From Mustelus asterias (lineage: Eukaryota), in NCBI RefSeq assembly GCF_964213995.1, contig NC_135814.1, positions 20,398,001 to 20,462,000 of the forward strand: a stretch of DNA of 64,000 nucleotides. Reading direction: 5' to 3'. Shown piece by piece: positions 7,411-37,222 of this stretch. How positions within the stretch are numbered: the first letter of the stretch is position 1; every line of letters begins with the position of its first letter. The notes under the pieces were generated by a model. The model worked only from the letters and a program-made list of their open reading frames with translations. It had not been told where the DNA came from and did not search any database. A program made the position numbers and the translations under genes.

Positions 7411-7579
7411 CTTCTTCGGAAAGTCATGGGATCTTTGACATCCATTTGAATAACAAAGGTTTAGACTGTTGGAAAAGGCAACCAGACATCACCATGACAT
7501 CTAGTTTAAACATTACGTTCCCCTTCACAAGTTTTGACTTCCCTTGCTCCACAACCAATTGGCTGTGTCGGCGCAGAAC

Positions 7580-13108: not shown

Positions 13109-15495
13109 AGAACATAAGAACAAAGGAACAGAAGAACTAGGAGCAGAGTGGGCCATCTGGCCCCTCGAGCCTGCTCCGCCATTCAATAAAATCATGGTTG
13201 ATCTTTTCATGGACTCAGCTCCACTTACCCACCTGCTCACCATAACTCTTAATTCCTTCACTGTTCAAAAATTTATCTATCCTTCCCTTAAAAACATTCA
13301 ATAAGGTAGCCTCAACTGCTTCACTGGGCAAGGAATTCCATAGATTCACAACCCTTTGTGTGAAGAAGTTCCTTCTCAACTCAGTCCTATATCTGCTTCC
13401 CCTTATTTTGAGGTCATGCCCCCTAGTTCTAGTTTCATTTGCCAGTGGAAACAATTTCCCTGCTTCTATCTTATCTATTCCTTTCATAATCTTATATGTT
13501 TCAATAAGATCTCCCCTCATTCTTCTGAATTCCAGTGAGTATAGCCCCAGTCTACTCAGTCTCTCCTTATAAGCCAACCCTCTCAACTCCAGAATCAACC
13601 TAGTGAATCTCCTCTTTACCCCTTCCAGTGCCAGTAAATCCTTTCTCAAGTAAGGAGACTAAAACTGTACACAGTATTCCACATGTGGCCTCACCAGCAC
13701 CTTATACAGCTGCAACATAACCTTGCTGTTTTTAAACTCCATCCCTCTAGCAATGAAGGACAAAATTCCATTTGCCTTCTTAATGACCTTCTGTACCTGC
13801 AAACTAACTCCTTGGGCCTGATTTTACCATTTTCATTCTAAGTGCCGAATCTGGGCATAATGCAGATCCGACTTAGAAATCTGCTTTCAGGCGCCCCCAT
13901 ACGCACTCAGCCATCTCCAGTCCCATTTGCGCTGTGGGTGGGGCTTAGCACGGCCAAAATGATTGGAGCTCTGAACTGTGCATGCGCAGTTTGAAAAAAA
14001 TTTGAAAAAGCGCGCCTGTGTTAGGTCTCGCCCGAGCCGCAGAAAGCGGAGAAAGCGTCCCAGGAGCGACAAGCGGGAGTGATCACTGTCCCCCTTATCC
14101 ACCCCCTCACTACCCATACACATCACTGTCCCCCTTATCCACCCCCCCACTACCCAGACCAATCGCCACCTCTGCCCCCCTCCCCTCCCCACCGATTGCA
14201 CGCAGAGTGGCAGCGGATCCCCCGCCCCCCCCACCAGAGATCCATCTGCCCCCCCCACCAGAGATCCGTCTGCCCCCCCCCCCCCCCACCACCAGAGATC
14301 CATCCGCCCCCCCTACCAGGGAGCGATCGGGCCTCCCCCCCCCAAGATACATCTTACCCACCTCCCTCCTCCCCCCCCCCCCCAAGACAATGATCTGGCC
14401 TCACTCCCCCCCCCCCCCCCCCCAACCCCAGAGAATGGTCTGGCCTCACCCATCCCCACCCCCACCATACAACGATCTGGCCTCACTTCCCCCCCCCCCC
14501 CCACAAATGAACTGGCTTCACTCACCGCCCCCCCGCCCCCCCAAGAGAATGGTCTGGCCTCACTCCCTCTCCCCTCCAGAGGAACATCTGACCTGCCTCC
14601 TCCTCCCTCACCACCAGACAACGAACAGCCCTCCCCCCCCACCACCAGACAATGGTCGGCCCTCTCACCACCCCCCCCCCTCCACACCCCCAGAGATATA
14701 TCTGACCCACCTCCCTCCTCCCGCCCACCACTGATCTGAGTCAGAGAGCCGTTGGAAACACTGAACGCGCCCTTCAGAAGCTGGAGCGTCCGTTTCAGAC
14801 TTTTATCTAGCAGGTCCATTACGGCAAATGCATTTAAATCGCCGTTGCGCTTGTTTTGGGCGCGAATCGAATCGCCGCCATTCCCGGATTTCGGTAAAGT
14901 GGCAATCTGCGCGGATGTGGGTGCGGATCGCGATAATGGCCTCTCACCTGACTTTACCATGTTTTTGCCCCCAAAAACGGGCGCAAGGCAATGGTAAAAT
15001 AGGGCCCCTTGTGATTCTTGCACAAGGACACCCAGGTCCCTCTGCACAGCAGCATGCTGCAATTTTTTACCATTTAAATAATAGTCCATTTTGCTGTTAT
15101 TCCTACCAAAATGGATGACCTCACATTTACCAACATTGTACTTCATCTGCCAGACCCTCGCCCACTCACTTAGACTAGCTATATCCCTTTGCAGACTTTC
15201 AACATCCTCTGCACACTTTGCTCTGCCACCCATCTTAGTGTCATCTGCGAATTTTGACACGCTACACTTGGTCCCCAACTCCAAATCATCTATGTAAATC
15301 ATAAACAATTGCGGTCCCAATCCTGATCCCTGAGGCACACCACTAGCCACTGATCGCCAACCAGAAAACACCCATTTACCCCCACTCTTTGTTTTCTGTC
15401 AGTTAACCAATCCTCTATCTATGCTTATACATTACCCGTAACACCGTGCACCTTTATCTTATGTAGCAGTCTTTGGTGTGGCACCTTGCCAAATA
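13109..15495 (-). mobile_element. CR1 LINE RT/3' end, split by a Harbinger-like MITE
   Basis: ORFs 14313-15371 (GVPQGS, KFADDTK) and 13215-13649, a (TTCTTATG)-type tail, and flanking TCATA duplication (13104-13108, 15496-15500). Confidence 0.93.
13814..15007 (+). mobile_element. PIF/Harbinger-like MITE with internal C-rich minisatellite
   Basis: TIRs GGGCCTGATTTTACCATT / AATGGTAAAATAGGGCCC (16/18) and a 3-bp TSD CTT. It cleanly interrupts the CR1 RT. Confidence 0.9.
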
Positions 15496-29932: not shown

Positions 29933-31084
29933 TTTTAAAAAAGGAATAACAAGCAGTACTTAATACTTTAGTGAAGCAATAATTTGTATGTTTGTACAAC
30001 ATTGGAAACCAATTACAGATGTCAAACAATAATTGCTGTGGTCCCGGTCATCGGAGCTCCAACATGCTGAGCCATATAACTGCAGATTATGTCCCTTATT
30101 TCCTCACATGCAATTTGTGCCACTGGGGCTTGAGCTGGCCGGGCATCTGAAACTTCTCTACCGTAGGCACTCCAGACCACTCTCGGAAAAGAGATGGTTT
30201 ATTTGAAGTTTCAAAAAACATTGGAATTGTGAGACAAATGAAGAATGAGGTCCACGTAGTTCATCTTCCGCCATCGTGCTAGACACTTGGCACAATTATA
30301 ATGGAGTGATCAACTAAACAATCTCCATCAAGGTTTTGCAACAGGCCCAAGGAATGCTCCAGAGGCAGAAAGCCTTGAGAAATGTTGCAAACTCACCTGC
30401 TTCCTCAATAATGCAATGAATACGATGTGCCATGTCTTAAATTATTCATGCACTGTATCCCACAATATTATTTTTCAAAAGAAATGTTAATAAATTGTAT
30501 TTGAATGAATGAATATTATTTGCTCCCGCCACCTTCAGAGCCTGTTCCATGTGATGGACTCACTTGCTCATTGAAATCATCCATGTATTCCTTTTGAATT
30601 TATCTGCTTTCAGTACAGGCCATGTCCTTTTGTTCTGATGTTTCTGGACTGGGTAAAACAGCTTATCATGGTCTATGTTATATAGTCCCCATAAATCCTA
30701 AAAATAGCCATCATATCATCTCTCCCAACTTTCTCTTTTCTGGTGAGAATTTCTCAATATACATAATCACCTCTCATAATCTAATCACTCCAACCCCTCA
30801 ATCATTCTGGTTGATCTCGAATTTTCAATAGCAGAAATGTCCACTTTGTACCGGATGACCTGGAACTATACTATACAATGTGTTACAATCAAGTGAGCAG
30901 GGGTGGCATGGCTCCTCTCTCTTTTCCCATTCCTTGTATATCTGCAACAGGTATTTTTTTGAGGACAGGCTTGCTAATTCAGTGAATGTTTAACTGTTTA
31001 CAGGCTGTGACTACAAAATAAATATCCAGTCAAGTTTCCTTGTCAGTGTTTAACAAGAAAAGAGAATAGCATTTATTGTACTTA

Positions 31085-31851
31085 ATAAATGTGAGGTGAT
31101 TCATTTTGGTAGGACAAATTTAAATGTGGATTACAGGGTCAAAGGTAGGGTTCTGAAGACTGTGGAGGAACAGAGAGATCTTGGGGTCCATATCCACAGA
31201 TCTCTAAAGGTTGCCACTCAAGTGGATAGAGCTGTGAAGAAGGCCTATAGTGTGTTAGCTTTTATTAACAGGGGGTTGGAGTTTAAGAGCCGTGGGGTTA
31301 TGCTGCAACTGTACAGGACCTTGGTGAGACCACATTTGGAATATTGTGTGCAGTTCTGGTCACCTCACTATAAGAAGGATGTGGAAGCGCTGGAAAGAGT
31401 GCAGAGGAGATTTACCAGGCTGCTGCCTGGTTTGGAGGGTAGGTCATATGAGGAAAGGTTGAGGGAGCTAGGGCTGTTTTCTCTGGAGCGGAGGAGGCTG
31501 AGGGGAGACTTAATAGAGGTGTATAAAATGATGAAGGGGATAGATAGAGTGAACGTTCAAAGACTATTTCCTCGGGTGGATGGAGCTATTACAAGGGGGC
31601 ATAACTATAGGGTTCGTGGTGGGAGATACAGGACGGATATCAGAGGTAGGTTCTTTACGCAGAGAGTGGTTGGGGTGTGGAATGGACTGCCTGCAGTGAT
31701 AGTGGAGTCAGACACTTTAGAAACATTTAAGCGGTTATTGGATAGGCACATGGAGCACACCAGGATGATAGGGAGTGGGATAGCTTGATCTTGGTTTCAG
31801 ATAAAGCTCGGCACAACATCGTGGGCCGAAGGGCCTGTTCTGTGCTGTACT
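31085..31851 (+). mobile_element. Young 5'-truncated CR1; its (TTCTATG)n tail resumes at 35106-35130
   Basis: Uninterrupted ORF 31096-31788 (KCEVIHFG..RPHLEYCVQFWSP..RGDLIEVYK). The tail is split by the antisense CR1, with a TGTACT duplication (31846-31851, 35106-35111). Confidence 0.93.
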
Positions 31852-31941
31852 AAGAACATAAGAAATAGGAGCAGGAGTAGGCCATCTAGCCCCTCGAGCC
31901 TGCCCCGCCATTCAATAAGATCATGGCTGATCTGACGTGGA

Positions 31942-34900
31942 TCAGTACCACTTACCCGCCTGATCCCCATAACCCTTAATTCCCTTACCGATCAGGAATC
32001 CATCCATCCGCGCTTTAAACATATTCAGCGAGGTAGCCTCCACCACCTCAGTGGGCAGAGAATTCCAGAGATTCACCACCCTCTGGGAGAAGAAGTTCCT
32101 CCTCAACTCTGTCTTAAACCGACCCCCCTTTATTTTGAGGCTGTGTCCTCTAGTTTTAACTTCCTTACTAAGTGGAAAGAATCTCTCCGCCTCCACCCTA
32201 TCCAGCCCCCGCATTATCTTATAAGTCTCCATAAGATCCCCCCTCATCCTTCTAAACTCCAACGAGTACAAACCCAATCTCCTCAGCCTCTCCTCATAAT
32301 CCAAACCCCTCATCTCAGGTATCAACCTGGTGAACCTTCTCTGCACTCCCTCCAATGCCAATATATCCTTCCTCATATAAGGGGACCAATACTGCACACA
32401 GTATTCCAGCTGCGGCCTCACCAATGCCCTGTACAGGTGCATCAAGACATCCCTGCTTTTATATTCTATCCCCTTCGCAATATAGGCCAACATCCCATTT
32501 GCCTTCTTGATCACCTGTTGTACCTGCAGACTGGGCTTTTGCGTCTCATGCACAAGGACCCCCAGGTCCCTTTGCACGGTAGCATGTTTTAATTTGTTTC
32601 CATTGAGATAGTAATCCCATTTGTTATTATTTCCTCCAAAGTGTATAACCTCGCATTTCTCAACGTTATACTCCATTTGCCATATCCTCGCCCACTCACT
32701 CAGCCTGTCCAAATCTCTCTGCAGATCTTCTCCGTCCTCCACACGATTCACTTTTCCACTTATCTTTGTGTCGTCTGCAAACTTCGTTACCCTACACTCC
32801 GTCCCCTCCTCCAGATCATCTATATAAATGGTAAATAGTTGCGGCCCGAGTACCGATCCCTGCGGCACGCCACTAGTTACCTTCCTCCAACCGGAAAAAC
32901 ACCCATTTATTCCGACTCTTTGCTTCCTGTCGGATAGCCAGTCCCCAATCCACTTTAACACACTACCCCCAACTCCGTGTGCCCTAATCTTCTTCAGTAG
33001 CCTTTTATGGGGCACCTTATCAAACGCCTTTTGGAAATCCAAAAACACCGCATCCACCGGTTCTCCTCCATCAACCGCCCTAGTCACATCTTCATAAAAA
33101 TCCAACATGTTCGTCAAGCACGACTTTCCCCTCATGAATCCATGCTGCGTCTGATTGATCGTACCATTTCTATCCAGATGCCCTGCTATCTCCTCTTTAA
33201 TAATGGATTCCAGCATTTTCCCTACTACAGACGTTAAGCTGACCGGCCTATAGTTACCCGCCTTTTGTCTCCTTCCTTTTTTAAACAGCGGCGTAACATT
33301 AGCCGTTTTCCAATCAACCGGCACTACCCCAGAATGCAACGAGTTTTGATAAATAATCACTAACGCATCCACTATTACCTCTGACATTTCTTTCAATACC
33401 CTGGGATGCATTCCATCCGGACCCGGGGACTTATCCACCTTCAGTCCCATTAGTCTACCCAGCACTGCCTCTCTGGTAACATTAATTGTATTAAGTATTT
33501 CTCCTGCTGCCAACCCTCTATCGTTAATATTTGGCAAACTATTTGTGTCCTCCACCGTGAAGACCGACACAAAAAACTTATTTAAAGACTCAGCCATATC
33601 CTCATTTCCCACTATTAACTCCCCCCTCTCGTCCTCCAAGGGTCCAACATTCACTCTAGCCACTCTATTCCTTTTTATATATTTATAAAAACTTTTACTA
33701 TCATTTTTTATATTAATTGCTAGCCTAGCTTCATAGTCTATCCTTCCTTTCTTTATCGCTTTCTTAGTCTCTCTTTGTTGTTTCTTAAATTTTTCCCAAT
33801 CACTTGTTTCTCCACTATTTTTGGCCACTCTGTACGCAGCTGTTTTTATTTTAATACTCTCCTTTATTTCCTTCGTTATCCACGGCTGGTTCTCCCTTTT
33901 CTTACAATCCTTGTTTTTTGCTGGAATATATTTTTGCTGAGAACTGAAAAGGATCTCCTTAAAAATCCTCCACTGTTCCTCAGCTATCCTACCTGCCAGC
34001 CTGCTCTCCCAGTCTACCTTAGCCAATTCATCCCTCATCCTATCATATTTCCCTCTGTTCAAACAGAGGACACTGGTTTGGGACCAAACTTTCTCCTCTT
34101 CCATCTGAATCAGAAATTCGACCATATTGTGGTCACTAGACCCAAGAGGGTCCTTCACAATAAGATCCTTAATTCTACCTACCTCGTTACACAATACCAG
34201 ATCCAAAATAGCTCGTTCCCTCGTCGGTTCCGTAACATGCTGTTCAAGGAAACTATCCCGACAGCATTCTAAGAACTCTTCCTCCATTCCACCCTTACCG
34301 ACTTGAGTCTGCCAGTCAATGTGCATGTTGAAGTCCCCCATGATTATTGCCGTTCCGTTTTTACACGCATCCCTTATCTGCTTGTTTATAGCCCTCCCTA
34401 CCTCAACATTATTATTTGGGGGCCTATATACCACACCTACTAGTGTCTTTCTCCCTCTACTATTCCTCATCTCTACCCATAATGATTCCACGTTTTGTTC
34501 CTCAGAGCCTATGTCATCCCTCAGTACTACCCTGATATTATCTCTTATTAATAGCGCGACCCCACCACCTTTTCCTTCCTGTCTATTCTTCCTAAACGCC
34601 TGATACCCCTGGATATTCATCTCCCAGTCCTGGTCACCTTTCAGCCACGTTTCTGTAATGGCCACTAGATCGTACCCACTCGTGCTGATTTGCACCATCA
34701 ACTCATTTACCTTGTTCCGAATGCTTCGTGCATTCAGGCAAAGTGTCCTTATTCCAGCTTTTATCTGGACCCGCTTTGATGAGTCGCGAACACCCTCTCC
34801 CTCTACTCCCTTATCTAAATTACCGCCTTCATTCACTTGCACCCTCTCCTCTACCATTAATTTTGTAATTCCCCTTACCCCTGCATCCTCCACCCCATCA

Positions 34901-34947
34901 ATTAGTTCCTTGATCCTAGTCAACTCTTCTAGCTCCCCTCCCCCCAA
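31942..34947 (-). CDS. CR1 ORF2: APE endonuclease plus reverse transcriptase (1001 codons, no stops)
   Basis: APE motifs LNARS, ITETW, YRPP, MGDFN, LDL and SDH; RT motifs YRPVSLTS, QHGF, FLDFQKAFDKVPH, GVPQGSVLGP and KFADD. The listed start is TTG; the first ATG is codon 31. Confidence 0.95.
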   Translation of the reverse strand: MGGGELEELTRIKELIDGVEDAGVRGITKLMVEERVQVNEGGNLDKGVEGEGVRDSSKRVQIKAGIRTLCLNARSIRNKVNELMVQISTSGYDLVAITETWLKGDQDWEMNIQGYQAFRKNRQEGKGGGVALLIRDNIRVVLRDDIGSEEQNVESLWVEMRNSRGRKTLVGVVYRPPNNNVEVGRAINKQIRDACKNGTAIIMGDFNMHIDWQTQVGKGGMEEEFLECCRDSFLEQHVTEPTRERAILDLVLCNEVGRIKDLIVKDPLGSSDHNMVEFLIQMEEEKVWSQTSVLCLNRGKYDRMRDELAKVDWESRLAGRIAEEQWRIFKEILFSSQQKYIPAKNKDCKKRENQPWITKEIKESIKIKTAAYRVAKNSGETSDWEKFKKQQRETKKAIKKGRIDYEARLAINIKNDSKSFYKYIKRNRVARVNVGPLEDERGELIVGNEDMAESLNKFFVSVFTVEDTNSLPNINDRGLAAGEILNTINVTREAVLGRLMGLKVDKSPGPDGMHPRVLKEMSEVIVDALVIIYQNSLHSGVVPVDWKTANVTPLFKKGRRQKAGNYRPVSLTSVVGKMLESIIKEEIAGHLDRNGTINQTQHGFMRGKSCLTNMLDFYEDVTRAVDGGEPVDAVFLDFQKAFDKVPHKRLLKKIRAHGVGGSVLKWIGDWLSDRKQRVGINGCFSGWRKVTSGVPQGSVLGPQLFTIYIDDLEEGTECRVTKFADDTKISGKVNRVEDGEDLQRDLDRLSEWARIWQMEYNVEKCEVIHFGGNNNKWDYYLNGNKLKHATVQRDLGVLVHETQKPSLQVQQVIKKANGMLAYIAKGIEYKSRDVLMHLYRALVRPQLEYCVQYWSPYMRKDILALEGVQRRFTRLIPEMRGLDYEERLRRLGLYSLEFRRMRGDLMETYKIMRGLDRVEAERFFPLSKEVKTRGHSLKIKGGRFKTELRRNFFSQRVVNLWNSLPTEVVEATSLNMFKARMDGFLIGKGIKGYGDQAGKWY

Positions 34948-34952
34948 CCTAT

Positions 34953-35096
34953 CTAGTTTAAATTCTCCCCAGTAACCTTAGCCAACCTACCGGCCAGGAT
35001 ATTGGTCCCTGTGTGATTCAAGTTCCACCCGTTTTTTGTATACAGATCACCCCTGCCCCTAAAGAGGTCCCAATGGTCCAGGAACCTGAATCCCTG
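34953..35096 (-). CDS. CR1 ORF1 C-terminal fragment (SGNH esterase-like domain end)
   Basis: Manual translation QGFRFLDHWDLFRGRGDLYTKNGWNLNHTGTNILAGRLAKVTGENLN*, matching the typical CR1 ORF1 end (GFRFLDHW..LY..DGLHLN..GT.IL..LN*). Confidence 0.88.
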   Translation of the reverse strand, partial: QGFRFLDHWDLFRGRGDLYTKNGWNLNHTGTNILAGRLAKVTGENLN

Positions 35097-35190
35097 CTGT
35101 TTTATTGTACTGTTCTATGTTCTATGTTCTTAATCCGGTCAAATAGAAAATGATAACCCCCCCGACCTTTATGCACACAAACACTCAATG

Positions 35191-35683: not shown

Positions 35684-37222
35684 GGGCCTGATCTTACCAT
35701 TTTCATTCTAAGTGCTGAATCTGGGTACAATTCAGATCTGACTTGGAAACCTGCTTTCAGGCGCCCGCATATGCACTCACCCTAAAAAAAAAAATCACGG
35801 GACTGAATCGCACTGTGGGCAGGGCATAACGCGCCCAAAATGATCGGAGCTCTGAACTGCGCATGCGCAGTTAGAAAAAAATTTGGAAAAGCGTGCCCGT
35901 GTCAGATCGCTCCCGAGCCGCAGAAAGCGGAAGAAGCGGCCCGGGAGCGATGGCCCCCACACACATCACTGTCCCCCTTATCCACCCACCCACCCCGCTA
36001 ACCAGACTGATCGCGACCCCCTGTCCCCTTCCCCCCTGCACCGATCACCCGCAGAGTGGCAGCAGACCCCCGTTCCCCCCACCAGAGATACATCTGCTCC
36101 CCCCCCCCAGCAGTGAGCGATCGGGCCTCCCACCCTCCCCCCACCAGTGATACATCTTACCCGCCTCCCTCCTCCCCACCCTTCTCCCCCCCGGCCCCCC
36201 CCCACCCACCCCCCCCCCCCCCCCCCCCCCCACCCCAGAGAGCGATCTGGCCTCATTCTCCCTCCCCGAGAGAATGAACTGGCCTCGCCTCCTCCCCCCC
36301 AGGGAATGATCTGCCCTCACTCCCCTCTCCCCCACCAGGAAATGATCTAGCCTCACTCCCCCCCCCCCCCCCCCCTGCCAAGAGAATGATCTGGCCTCAT
36401 TCCCCCCCCCCCTTCCCCAGAGAATGATCTGGCCTCACTCCCCCCACCCTCCCCCCCCCCAGAGAATGATCTGGCCTCATTCCCCCCCCGCCCCACCCAC
36501 CCCCCAGAGAATAATCTGGCCTCATCCCCCCCCCGCCCCACCCACCCCCCAGAGAATGATCTGGCCTCATCCCCCCCACCCAGAGAATGATCTGGCCTCA
36601 CTCCCCCCCCCCCCCCACCCCCAGAGAATGATCTGGCCTCATTCCCCCCACCCCACCCACCCCCTAGAGAATGATCTGGCCTCACTCCCCCTCCTCCCCC
36701 CCCCCCCCAGAGAACCATCTGGCCTCACTCCCCACCCCCCCCCACACCGCCCCCCCTCCGCTCCCCGCCCCCCACCCCAGAGAATGATCTGGCCTCATTC
36801 CGCACCCCCTCCCCCCCGAGAATGATCTGACCCGCCTCCCTCCCTCCTCCCCCCCCACCGATCTGAGTCAGAGAGCCGTTGGAAGCACTGAACTCACCTC
36901 TTCAGCAGCTGGAGCGCCCGATTCAGACTTTTATTCAGCTGGTCCATTTCGGCGCGATTCCGGATCGCCGAATGCAGTGGTAAAGGGGGAAATGCTGATA
37001 AAGTTGGGCGGGGAGTTCAGTCATTCCATTTAAATGCATGCAAATGCATTTAAATCAACGTTGCACCCGTTTCGGACGTGATCGGATCACGGCCATTCCC
37101 GGGTCTCGGTAAAGTGGCCATCTGCGCGGACGCAGGCGCGGATCGCGTTAATGGCCTCGCACCCAACTTTACCACATTTTCACACCCGAAAATGGGTGTG
37201 TCGCAATAGTAAAATAGGGCCC
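35684..37222 (+). mobile_element. PIF/Harbinger-like MITE (same family as 13814-15007)
   Basis: TIRs GGGCCTGATCTTACCATT / AATAGTAAAATAGGGCCC and a 3-bp TSD ATA (35681-35683, 37223-37225). Confidence 0.9.
36237..36840 (+). repeat. Minisatellite: about 15 units of AGAGAATGATCTGGCCTCA(C/T) plus a variable poly-C tract
   Basis: Counted by eye. Constant ~20-nt unit with C-rich linkers of about 10-50 nt. Confidence 0.92.

Follow-up and report, generated by a model that had tools for sequence, protein, structure and literature searches.

A candidate programmed −1 ribosomal frameshift site at the ORF1–ORF2 junction of esterase-type CR1 retrotransposons

The junction between the two open reading frames of esterase-type CR1 elements carries a slippery heptamer, U_UUA_AAC, directly before the ORF1 stop codon, and ORF2 is open in the −1 frame. 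Judged from the conservation of codons and frame across families, programmed −1 ribosomal frameshifting at this heptamer probably fuses ORF1 to ORF2 in these elements, a reading to which we assign a probability of about 80%. The mode of translation of LINE ORF2 has been called an open and important question (PMC3894237), and elements of the CR1 group are described as dominating the retrotransposon content of most vertebrate species (PMC13343379). The copy that gave rise to the analysis lies in a 64,000-nucleotide stretch of Mustelus asterias DNA, referred to here as the window.

This copy (31852..35097, minus strand) is a very young, 5′-truncated CR1 LINE. Compared with a copy that has full ORFs, it differs at 7 positions over 3110 nt, up to position 35097, where the match stops, and its 3′ end lies at 31852. 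Its young family comprises 860 candidate copies, and the 40 copies that were scored are ~100% identical. The remnant of ORF1 (34953..35097, minus) consists of the last 47 codons and the stop, and was 100% identical by tblastn to residues 263–309 of the 309-aa ORF1 of full-length sister copies, which contains an SGNH esterase domain (Lipase_GDSL_2, E = 4.5e-10) and has its named homologs in rays and sharks. ORF2 (31942..34977, minus) spans 1011 codons from stop to stop at −1 relative to ORF1, ends with the TGA at 31944–31942, and includes an APE-type endonuclease domain (34129..34740, minus; Pfam Exo_endo_phos), with its first motif at 34740, and a reverse transcriptase domain (32629..33276, minus; Pfam RVT_1, E = 2.9e-33). 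The 3′ UTR (31852..31941, minus) contains a predicted hairpin and a short terminal repeat. A 6-nt target-site duplication flanks the insertion (left copy, 31846..31851; right copy, 35106..35111), with 8 nt separating the right copy from the element. The CR1 hallmarks, namely a 3′ hairpin, short terminal repeats, the lack of poly(A) and 5′ truncation, were all observed, and on the basis of its anatomy and homologs the window element is assigned to the ordinary esterase-type CR1s.

Lacking an ORF1 start, the window copy is a relic that is incapable of ORF1–ORF2 frameshifting; it cannot make the fusion itself because the 5′ truncation has removed most of ORF1. The preliminary description, made from the letters of the window, had proposed a frameshift joining ORF1 to ORF2 in a young CR1; the youth of the element is confirmed, with the correction that this copy retains only 47 codons of ORF1.

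The element inserted into another CR1, of a different family and on the plus strand (31081–31851 and 35106–35132), within its 3′ tail; the insertion point lies directly before the terminal repeats of the recipient, and 8 extra bases are present at the 5′ junction. In the youngest family, the esterase motif D-G-L-H reads N-G-W-N (window 35016–35001, minus; also locus L004), and G-D-S is kept. The presumed catalytic Asp and His are gone from the esterase of this family, yet the family is highly amplified.

On the minus strand, ORF1 in the window ends with GAG AAT TTA AAC TAG (…G-E-N-L-N-stop). The heptamer U_UUA_AAC (34956..34962) is in the ORF1 phase, and the TAG stop (34953..34955) follows directly 3′. 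The −1 frame is closed by a TAA five codons 5′ of the heptamer (34978..34980, minus) and is open from there through the Pfam endonuclease and RVT_1 domains to the TGA. The first in-frame ATG of ORF2 (34855..34857, minus), which other families do not have at this place, is codon 41 counted from the opening of the frame and codon 31 counted from the TTG at 34947. These positions agree with the preliminary description, which had placed the heptamer in exact X_XXY_YYZ phase before the ORF1 stop, ORF2 in the −1 frame overlapping the end of ORF1, and the first ATG at codon 31 of the listed ORF. Since the −1 frame is shut five codons upstream in this family and two codons upstream in the bird-type copies described below, dual coding of F-K-L without a shift cannot account for the codon spelling. 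The window copy alone proves little because the bare TTTAAAC is common, with 26 occurrences in the window. A second TTTAAACTAG at 7501–7510 (minus), which has neither the G motif nor a CR1 context, is a chance match. The junctions of all 30 fetched copies of the young family were identical letter for letter, which is uninformative about selection; therefore, the test was done on diverged families.

As an anchor within ORF1, a back-translated esterase motif that excludes the heptamer was used, which gave 13,090 matches versus 167 for the control. Seventy loci were examined, comprising the first 30 listed and 40 picked from the other 70 listed, with rarer codon spellings favoured, and TTTAAAC was observed within 130 nt in 58 of them. 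The 49 loci with an ORF1 stop exactly at codon 27 were kept, and the other 21 were dropped for indels, early stops or truncations. The wobble base before the Leu codon was T in 49/49 copies, although G, D, R, A, S and other residues, at least seven in all, are encoded there; Leu was spelled TTA in 46/47, and Asn was spelled AAC in 46/47. The proportions of TTA at three other Leu positions of ORF1 were 20/48, 1/49 and 0/47. The identity of the stop varied among these related copies (TAG in 26, TAA in 15 and TGA in 8).

Clustering of the 49 copies at 85% yielded 19 lineages with a mean identity of 62%, for which the counts, not independent because the lineages are related, were 19/19 for T, 17/17 for TTA and 16/17 for AAC, and the expectation for T-TTA-AAC from ORF2 codon usage is about 1.3% per lineage. 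Relatedness contributes to this conservation, since the wobble base of codon 18 is also T in 18/19 lineages. Genome-wide, T-TTA-AAC was present in 9,316 of the 9,686 esterase-anchored copies ending in Leu-Asn-stop, figures that count copies rather than independent events and that rest on a stop pattern also admitting TGG. The free synonymous variation in the Leu-Asn codons that the preliminary description had named as an argument against frameshifting was not observed in the 49 copies.

The same junction was approached from the ORF2 side with an endonuclease pattern, which gave 15,895 matches versus 8 for the control. In 23 of 30 loci examined, the heptamer and the stop were located upstream of the endonuclease, 20 of them in the exact −1 frame; of the other seven loci, six seem to break off within the linker and one carries a single substitution. 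With a pattern designed for older families, 28 further loci were obtained, 12 of which lack an ORF1 tail. Among the 16 loci with a tail, nine had the exact heptamer (six in frame) and seven had no exact match in the interval tested; three of these seven read TTTAAAT, which is still X_XXY_YYZ, one is decayed, and in three the junction lies outside that interval. The matches of a further pattern scan were mostly due to chance, 26 of 30 having no ORF1 tail.

Heptamer and endonuclease were separated by a whole number of codons in 45 of the 54 distinct junctions, so that the variable ORF2 frame that had been put forward as counter-evidence did not appear. When grouped into 16 clusters, 12 had an in-frame modal length and 11 of these were stop-free, all 11 in frame; the four out-of-frame clusters hold one or two copies each, and the other exceptions are minority lengths. 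The heptamer precedes the endonuclease motif by 222 nt in the window copy, where the stop-free variable linker between the G motif described below and the endonuclease occupies 34741..34935 (minus), and by 111–366 nt in other families, the linker lengths being 111–264 nt in the junction clusters and 198, 255 and 366 nt in the older families. Past the first ten codons, the linkers of different families show little sequence likeness.

Two further features of the spacers were noted. In one young family (L043, L044 and L055), the G run behind the stop varies in length between copies, and as a result ORF2 loses its frame in two of the four distinct junctions. Also, families sharing one post-stop spacer differ in their 3′ tails, and a single tail type is combined with more than one spacer (L168, L223, L224, L233 and L273), which suggests that 3′ ends may have been exchanged between CR1 families.

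Scanning of metagenome contigs with the endonuclease pattern detected at least 26 loci. Among the 26 listed, the heptamer, the stop and the −1 frame are present in six bird-type copies; another two are decayed, 14 end short of the junction through truncation, and four are non-vertebrate-like elements with neither the heptamer nor a recognisable esterase ORF1. We take the six to be bird-type CR1 because their ORF1 ends resemble those of a named swallow protein (P0069). The motif that the preliminary description had tentatively placed at the ORF1 ends of other vertebrate CR1s is present in these copies. Named ORF1 proteins from snake, lizard, turtle, swallow and eel likewise have L-N at the end.

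Prokaryotic genome bins gave nine matches, two of which (L159 and L164) are esterase CR1s and presumably represent eukaryotic contamination. In these two related, invertebrate-like elements, ORF1 ends with T-TTT-TTA-GTG-stop, in which U_UUU_UUA is in phase in place of U_UUA_AAC, and ORF2 is open at −1; the ORF2 of L159 has no Met until codon 126. As a separate observation, CR1 sequences of eukaryotic type occur in prokaryotic genome bins as well as in one isolate assembly (L159, L164, L160 and L165), likely as contamination.

Of 123 ORF1-like proteins, 86 end in Asn and 37 do not. The residue before the Asn places 78 of the 86 in three classes, L-N (60), G-N (17) and K-N (1), versus an expectation of 22% for K/P/G/L, in a tally made from proteins with their codons unseen and with many of the proteins related. 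These ends fit U_UUA_AAC, G_GGA_AAC and A_AAA_AAC, respectively, as the putative underlying heptamers, all of which are among the most shifty sites (PMC5009743).

Overall, the pattern matches the prediction for a −1 frameshift because the heptamer is phased and constrained, the stop is interchangeable, the linker is free in sequence and locked in frame, and no start is conserved; the replacement of the site by another slippery heptamer in distant relatives matches it as well. In the proposed mechanism, most ribosomes would terminate at the ORF1 stop and release ORF1p, and a minority would slip back by one base, with tRNA-Leu moving from UUA to UUU and tRNA-Asn from AAC to AAA. In the slipped frame the stop would be decoded within a Leu codon, and the ribosomes would then traverse the variable linker; the predicted product is ORF1p joined via Leu-Asn to the −1 frame, 1313 residues long in the window family. 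The adjacent stop may add a pause. In a weak search among longer proteins, no natural in-frame ORF1–ORF2 fusion protein was found, and scans of viral contigs gave nothing relevant.

The best rival to frameshifting is termination followed by AUG-independent reinitiation at −1 near the ORF1 stop, which would yield a separate ORF2p and make the conserved letters a reinitiation signal. L1 is bicistronic with an ORF2 dependent on ORF1 translation, and AUG-independent reinitiation near its ORF1 stop has been described. SART1 is presented as similarly organised, and reinitiation is its reported route (PMC3894237, PMC10275272, PMC3708506 for the organisation; PMC10275272 and PMC3894237 for the route). 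Reinitiation accounts for the open in-frame linker and for the missing ATG, and the stop directly 3′ of the heptamer in intact vertebrate-type junctions is in keeping with it. However, it explains the open linker and not the logic of the heptamer: it predicts neither a phased X_XXY_YYZ, nor the replacement of this site by U_UUU_UUA one codon earlier, nor the L-N, G-N and K-N ends. In the TAG and TAA families, moreover, the −1 codon that covers the stop reads CTA, a poor start. CR1 also differs from SART1 and L1 in having no UAAUG stop-start, no conserved AUG and no inter-ORF spacer, its frames overlapping at the slippery site; an AUG of the SART1 type that overlaps or adjoins the ORF1 stop is absent at the CR1 junctions. 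We therefore regard reinitiation as unlikely.

A non-translational role of the conserved letters, such as RNA packaging, protein binding or a DNA element, with the frame fixed for some other reason, is very unlikely. In its favour, conservation of the G motif is at the nucleotide level, no partner of the motif was found, and the wobble positions just 5′ of the heptamer are also G-rich; but the motif stays locked to the codon phase and to the ORF1 stop despite differing 3′ tails and linkers, and distant relatives have a different slippery heptamer at the same place.

Initiation of ORF2 at a downstream ATG (34857 in the window copy), reached by reinitiation or internal entry and leaving the heptamer as an inherited relic, has hardly any likelihood. 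In the window family an in-frame ATG does precede the endonuclease motif, by 39 codons, and some ATG occurs in the linker of several other clusters, but its position is scattered where it is present (codons 3, 4, 17, 20, 23, 35 and 41), and 6 of the 11 open clusters include members without any ATG before the endonuclease motif. It is missing in 4/4 bird-type copies of one cluster and in 5/5 copies of the sister family that shares the spacer of the window copy, which lends no support to the dependence of ORF2 on the ATG near 34857 that the preliminary description had considered. In one intact ORF2 of 974 codons (L174), the first Met is codon 68, inside the endonuclease and 17 codons past the endonuclease motif at codon 51, which holds a conserved Asn that is catalytic in L1. 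Equally improbable is a joining of the frames in the RNA, whether through splicing or through slippage of transcription on T/A or G runs: an AG is present at the junction in the TAG families and the G-run length varies in genomic copies of one family, but 23/49 copies have TAA or TGA and hence no AG, the T and A runs are just three long, and the contigs of four public runs contain no indel or GT..AG joint at the junction, a weak point given that these are contigs only and their RNA status is guessed.

Returning to frameshifting, heptamers without a stimulator usually shift poorly. Behind the heptamer, the stop and seven variable bases are followed by GGGGG-NN-GGG at +18 to +27, a candidate stimulator that starts 10 nt behind the heptamer (34936..34945, minus, in the window) and occupies the same position in the bird-type copies. 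Its two Gly codons were GGG in 29/29 cases versus 88/252 elsewhere, and the +18 wobble base was G in 15/15, as counted in 15 chosen family representatives (17 tried, two not located). The pattern of heptamer plus G motif gave 18,273 matches versus 7 for the control. In public contigs from three runs, the likeness between related families ends directly behind the G motif (loose ends at 1660). Some old families (L059, L109 and L118) have a weaker form of the motif. In addition, the wobble positions at codons 22–23, just before the heptamer, are mostly G (15/19 and 17/19 lineages) with differing amino acids, possibly because the 5′ context matters or because a quadruplex with a long loop encloses the site.

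Several structured stimulators were considered and rejected. The G-rich stretch has a G4Hunter-type score of 1.76, which is reached by only 0.1% of ORF2 windows, so that the G-rich stretch noted in the preliminary description is real and unusual; however, of 26 representative junctions, only 3, which belong to a single family, have four G3 tracts and 15 have four G2 tracts, which speaks against a general four-tract quadruplex as the stimulator. Local hairpins folded no better than shuffled sequences (mean z = 0.05 over 26 junctions, for pseudoknot-free structures) and had no shared fold. Frameshifting that depends on a long-distance 3′ element is known as the BYDV type. Pairing of the junction with its own 3′ tail was attractive in single families, but cognate pairs were no better than non-cognate pairs in permutation tests (p = 0.17–0.94) with six query windows on 20 junction/tail pairs; these pairs exclude copies whose ORF2 is not collinear or whose tail was not located, and the mean z of −1.0 is relative to shuffled tails only. 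For a C-rich partner ~430 nt into ORF1, the best 8-bp window was 67% Watson-Crick over 21 lineages, with no covariation shown, and this pairing was rejected, leaving a weak lead, because conserved Leu-Pro codons explain the match.

A linear motif remains as the candidate, and the unstructured G motif has, in our analysis, roughly an even chance of acting as the 3′ stimulator, most likely via a bound protein. A bound protein is the preferred guess because the linear G motif parallels an element of the PRRSV nsp1beta/PCBP frameshift, where CCCANCUCC lies 11 nt 3′ of the shift site (PMC5009743) and the CR1 motif begins at the 11th nt. In contrast, the CR1 motif is G-rich and that of PRRSV and the arteriviruses C-rich, the heptamers differ, and the CR1 binding protein is hypothetical. 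More tentatively, and with less than even odds, CR1 polymerase could be produced within a Gag-Pol-like fusion of esterase, endonuclease and RT, through a frameshift site that predates the shark–bird split, and the shift could be driven by a protein, either a host G-tract binder or ORF1p, on the linear G motif rather than by RNA structure.

Other known systems share part of this arrangement. The IBV coronavirus site U_UUA_AAC and the retroviral gag-pol sites (PMC5009743) belong to the same class of phased heptamers and fuse a structural gene to a polymerase at −1, whereas CR1 has no stem-loop signal behind the site and its stop follows immediately. Among non-LTR elements, Dictyostelium TRE5-A and TRE3-A are said to require −1 frameshifting to express ORF2 (PMC5911963); they resemble CR1 as APE-type LINEs with a −1 ORF2 and differ in being amoebal, in having another ORF1 and in targeting tRNA genes. 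The canonical vertebrate CR1, as described in PMC13343379 and PMC3905857, shares the esterase ORF1, the APE and RT domains of ORF2, 5′ truncation and short terminal repeats with the elements analysed here, and the slip site and the G motif are an addition to this described anatomy. The terms frameshift, slippery, overlap, start codon and translation do not occur in the main text of PMC13343379, and the consulted parts of PMC5009743, PMC11835228, PMC13343379, PMC2734521, PMC3905857, PMC3894237 and PMC3708506 contain no statement on CR1 frameshifting. The searchable literature yielded no description of it, and a mention in the primary CR1 papers of 1997–2005 is possible.

If the frameshift reading is correct, ORF2p is annotated wrongly, the product being a fusion of ~1300 residues that carries the esterase, and the slip site would set the ORF1:ORF2 ratio and explain the ORF2s without an AUG. 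CR1 would then provide a widespread natural frameshift with an unstructured G motif as its candidate stimulator; no natural frameshift stimulated by a G-quadruplex was known as of 2016, according to PMC5009743. If the shift is also protein-driven, cellular genomes would have a counterpart to the protein-stimulated frameshifting of viruses, and the shift would offer a point at which transposition is controlled. For CR1 retrotransposition assays, this implies that the ORF2 construct should not begin at the first ATG.

Elsewhere in the window, about twenty more LINE ORF2 fragments were observed on both strands between 1318 and 63999, at 27–75% identity and none with an ORF1. A C-rich tandem array is present in two copies (36233–36856 and 14218–14578), with a unit of ~40 nt around a constant core, and belongs to a repeated element with no relation to the slip site.
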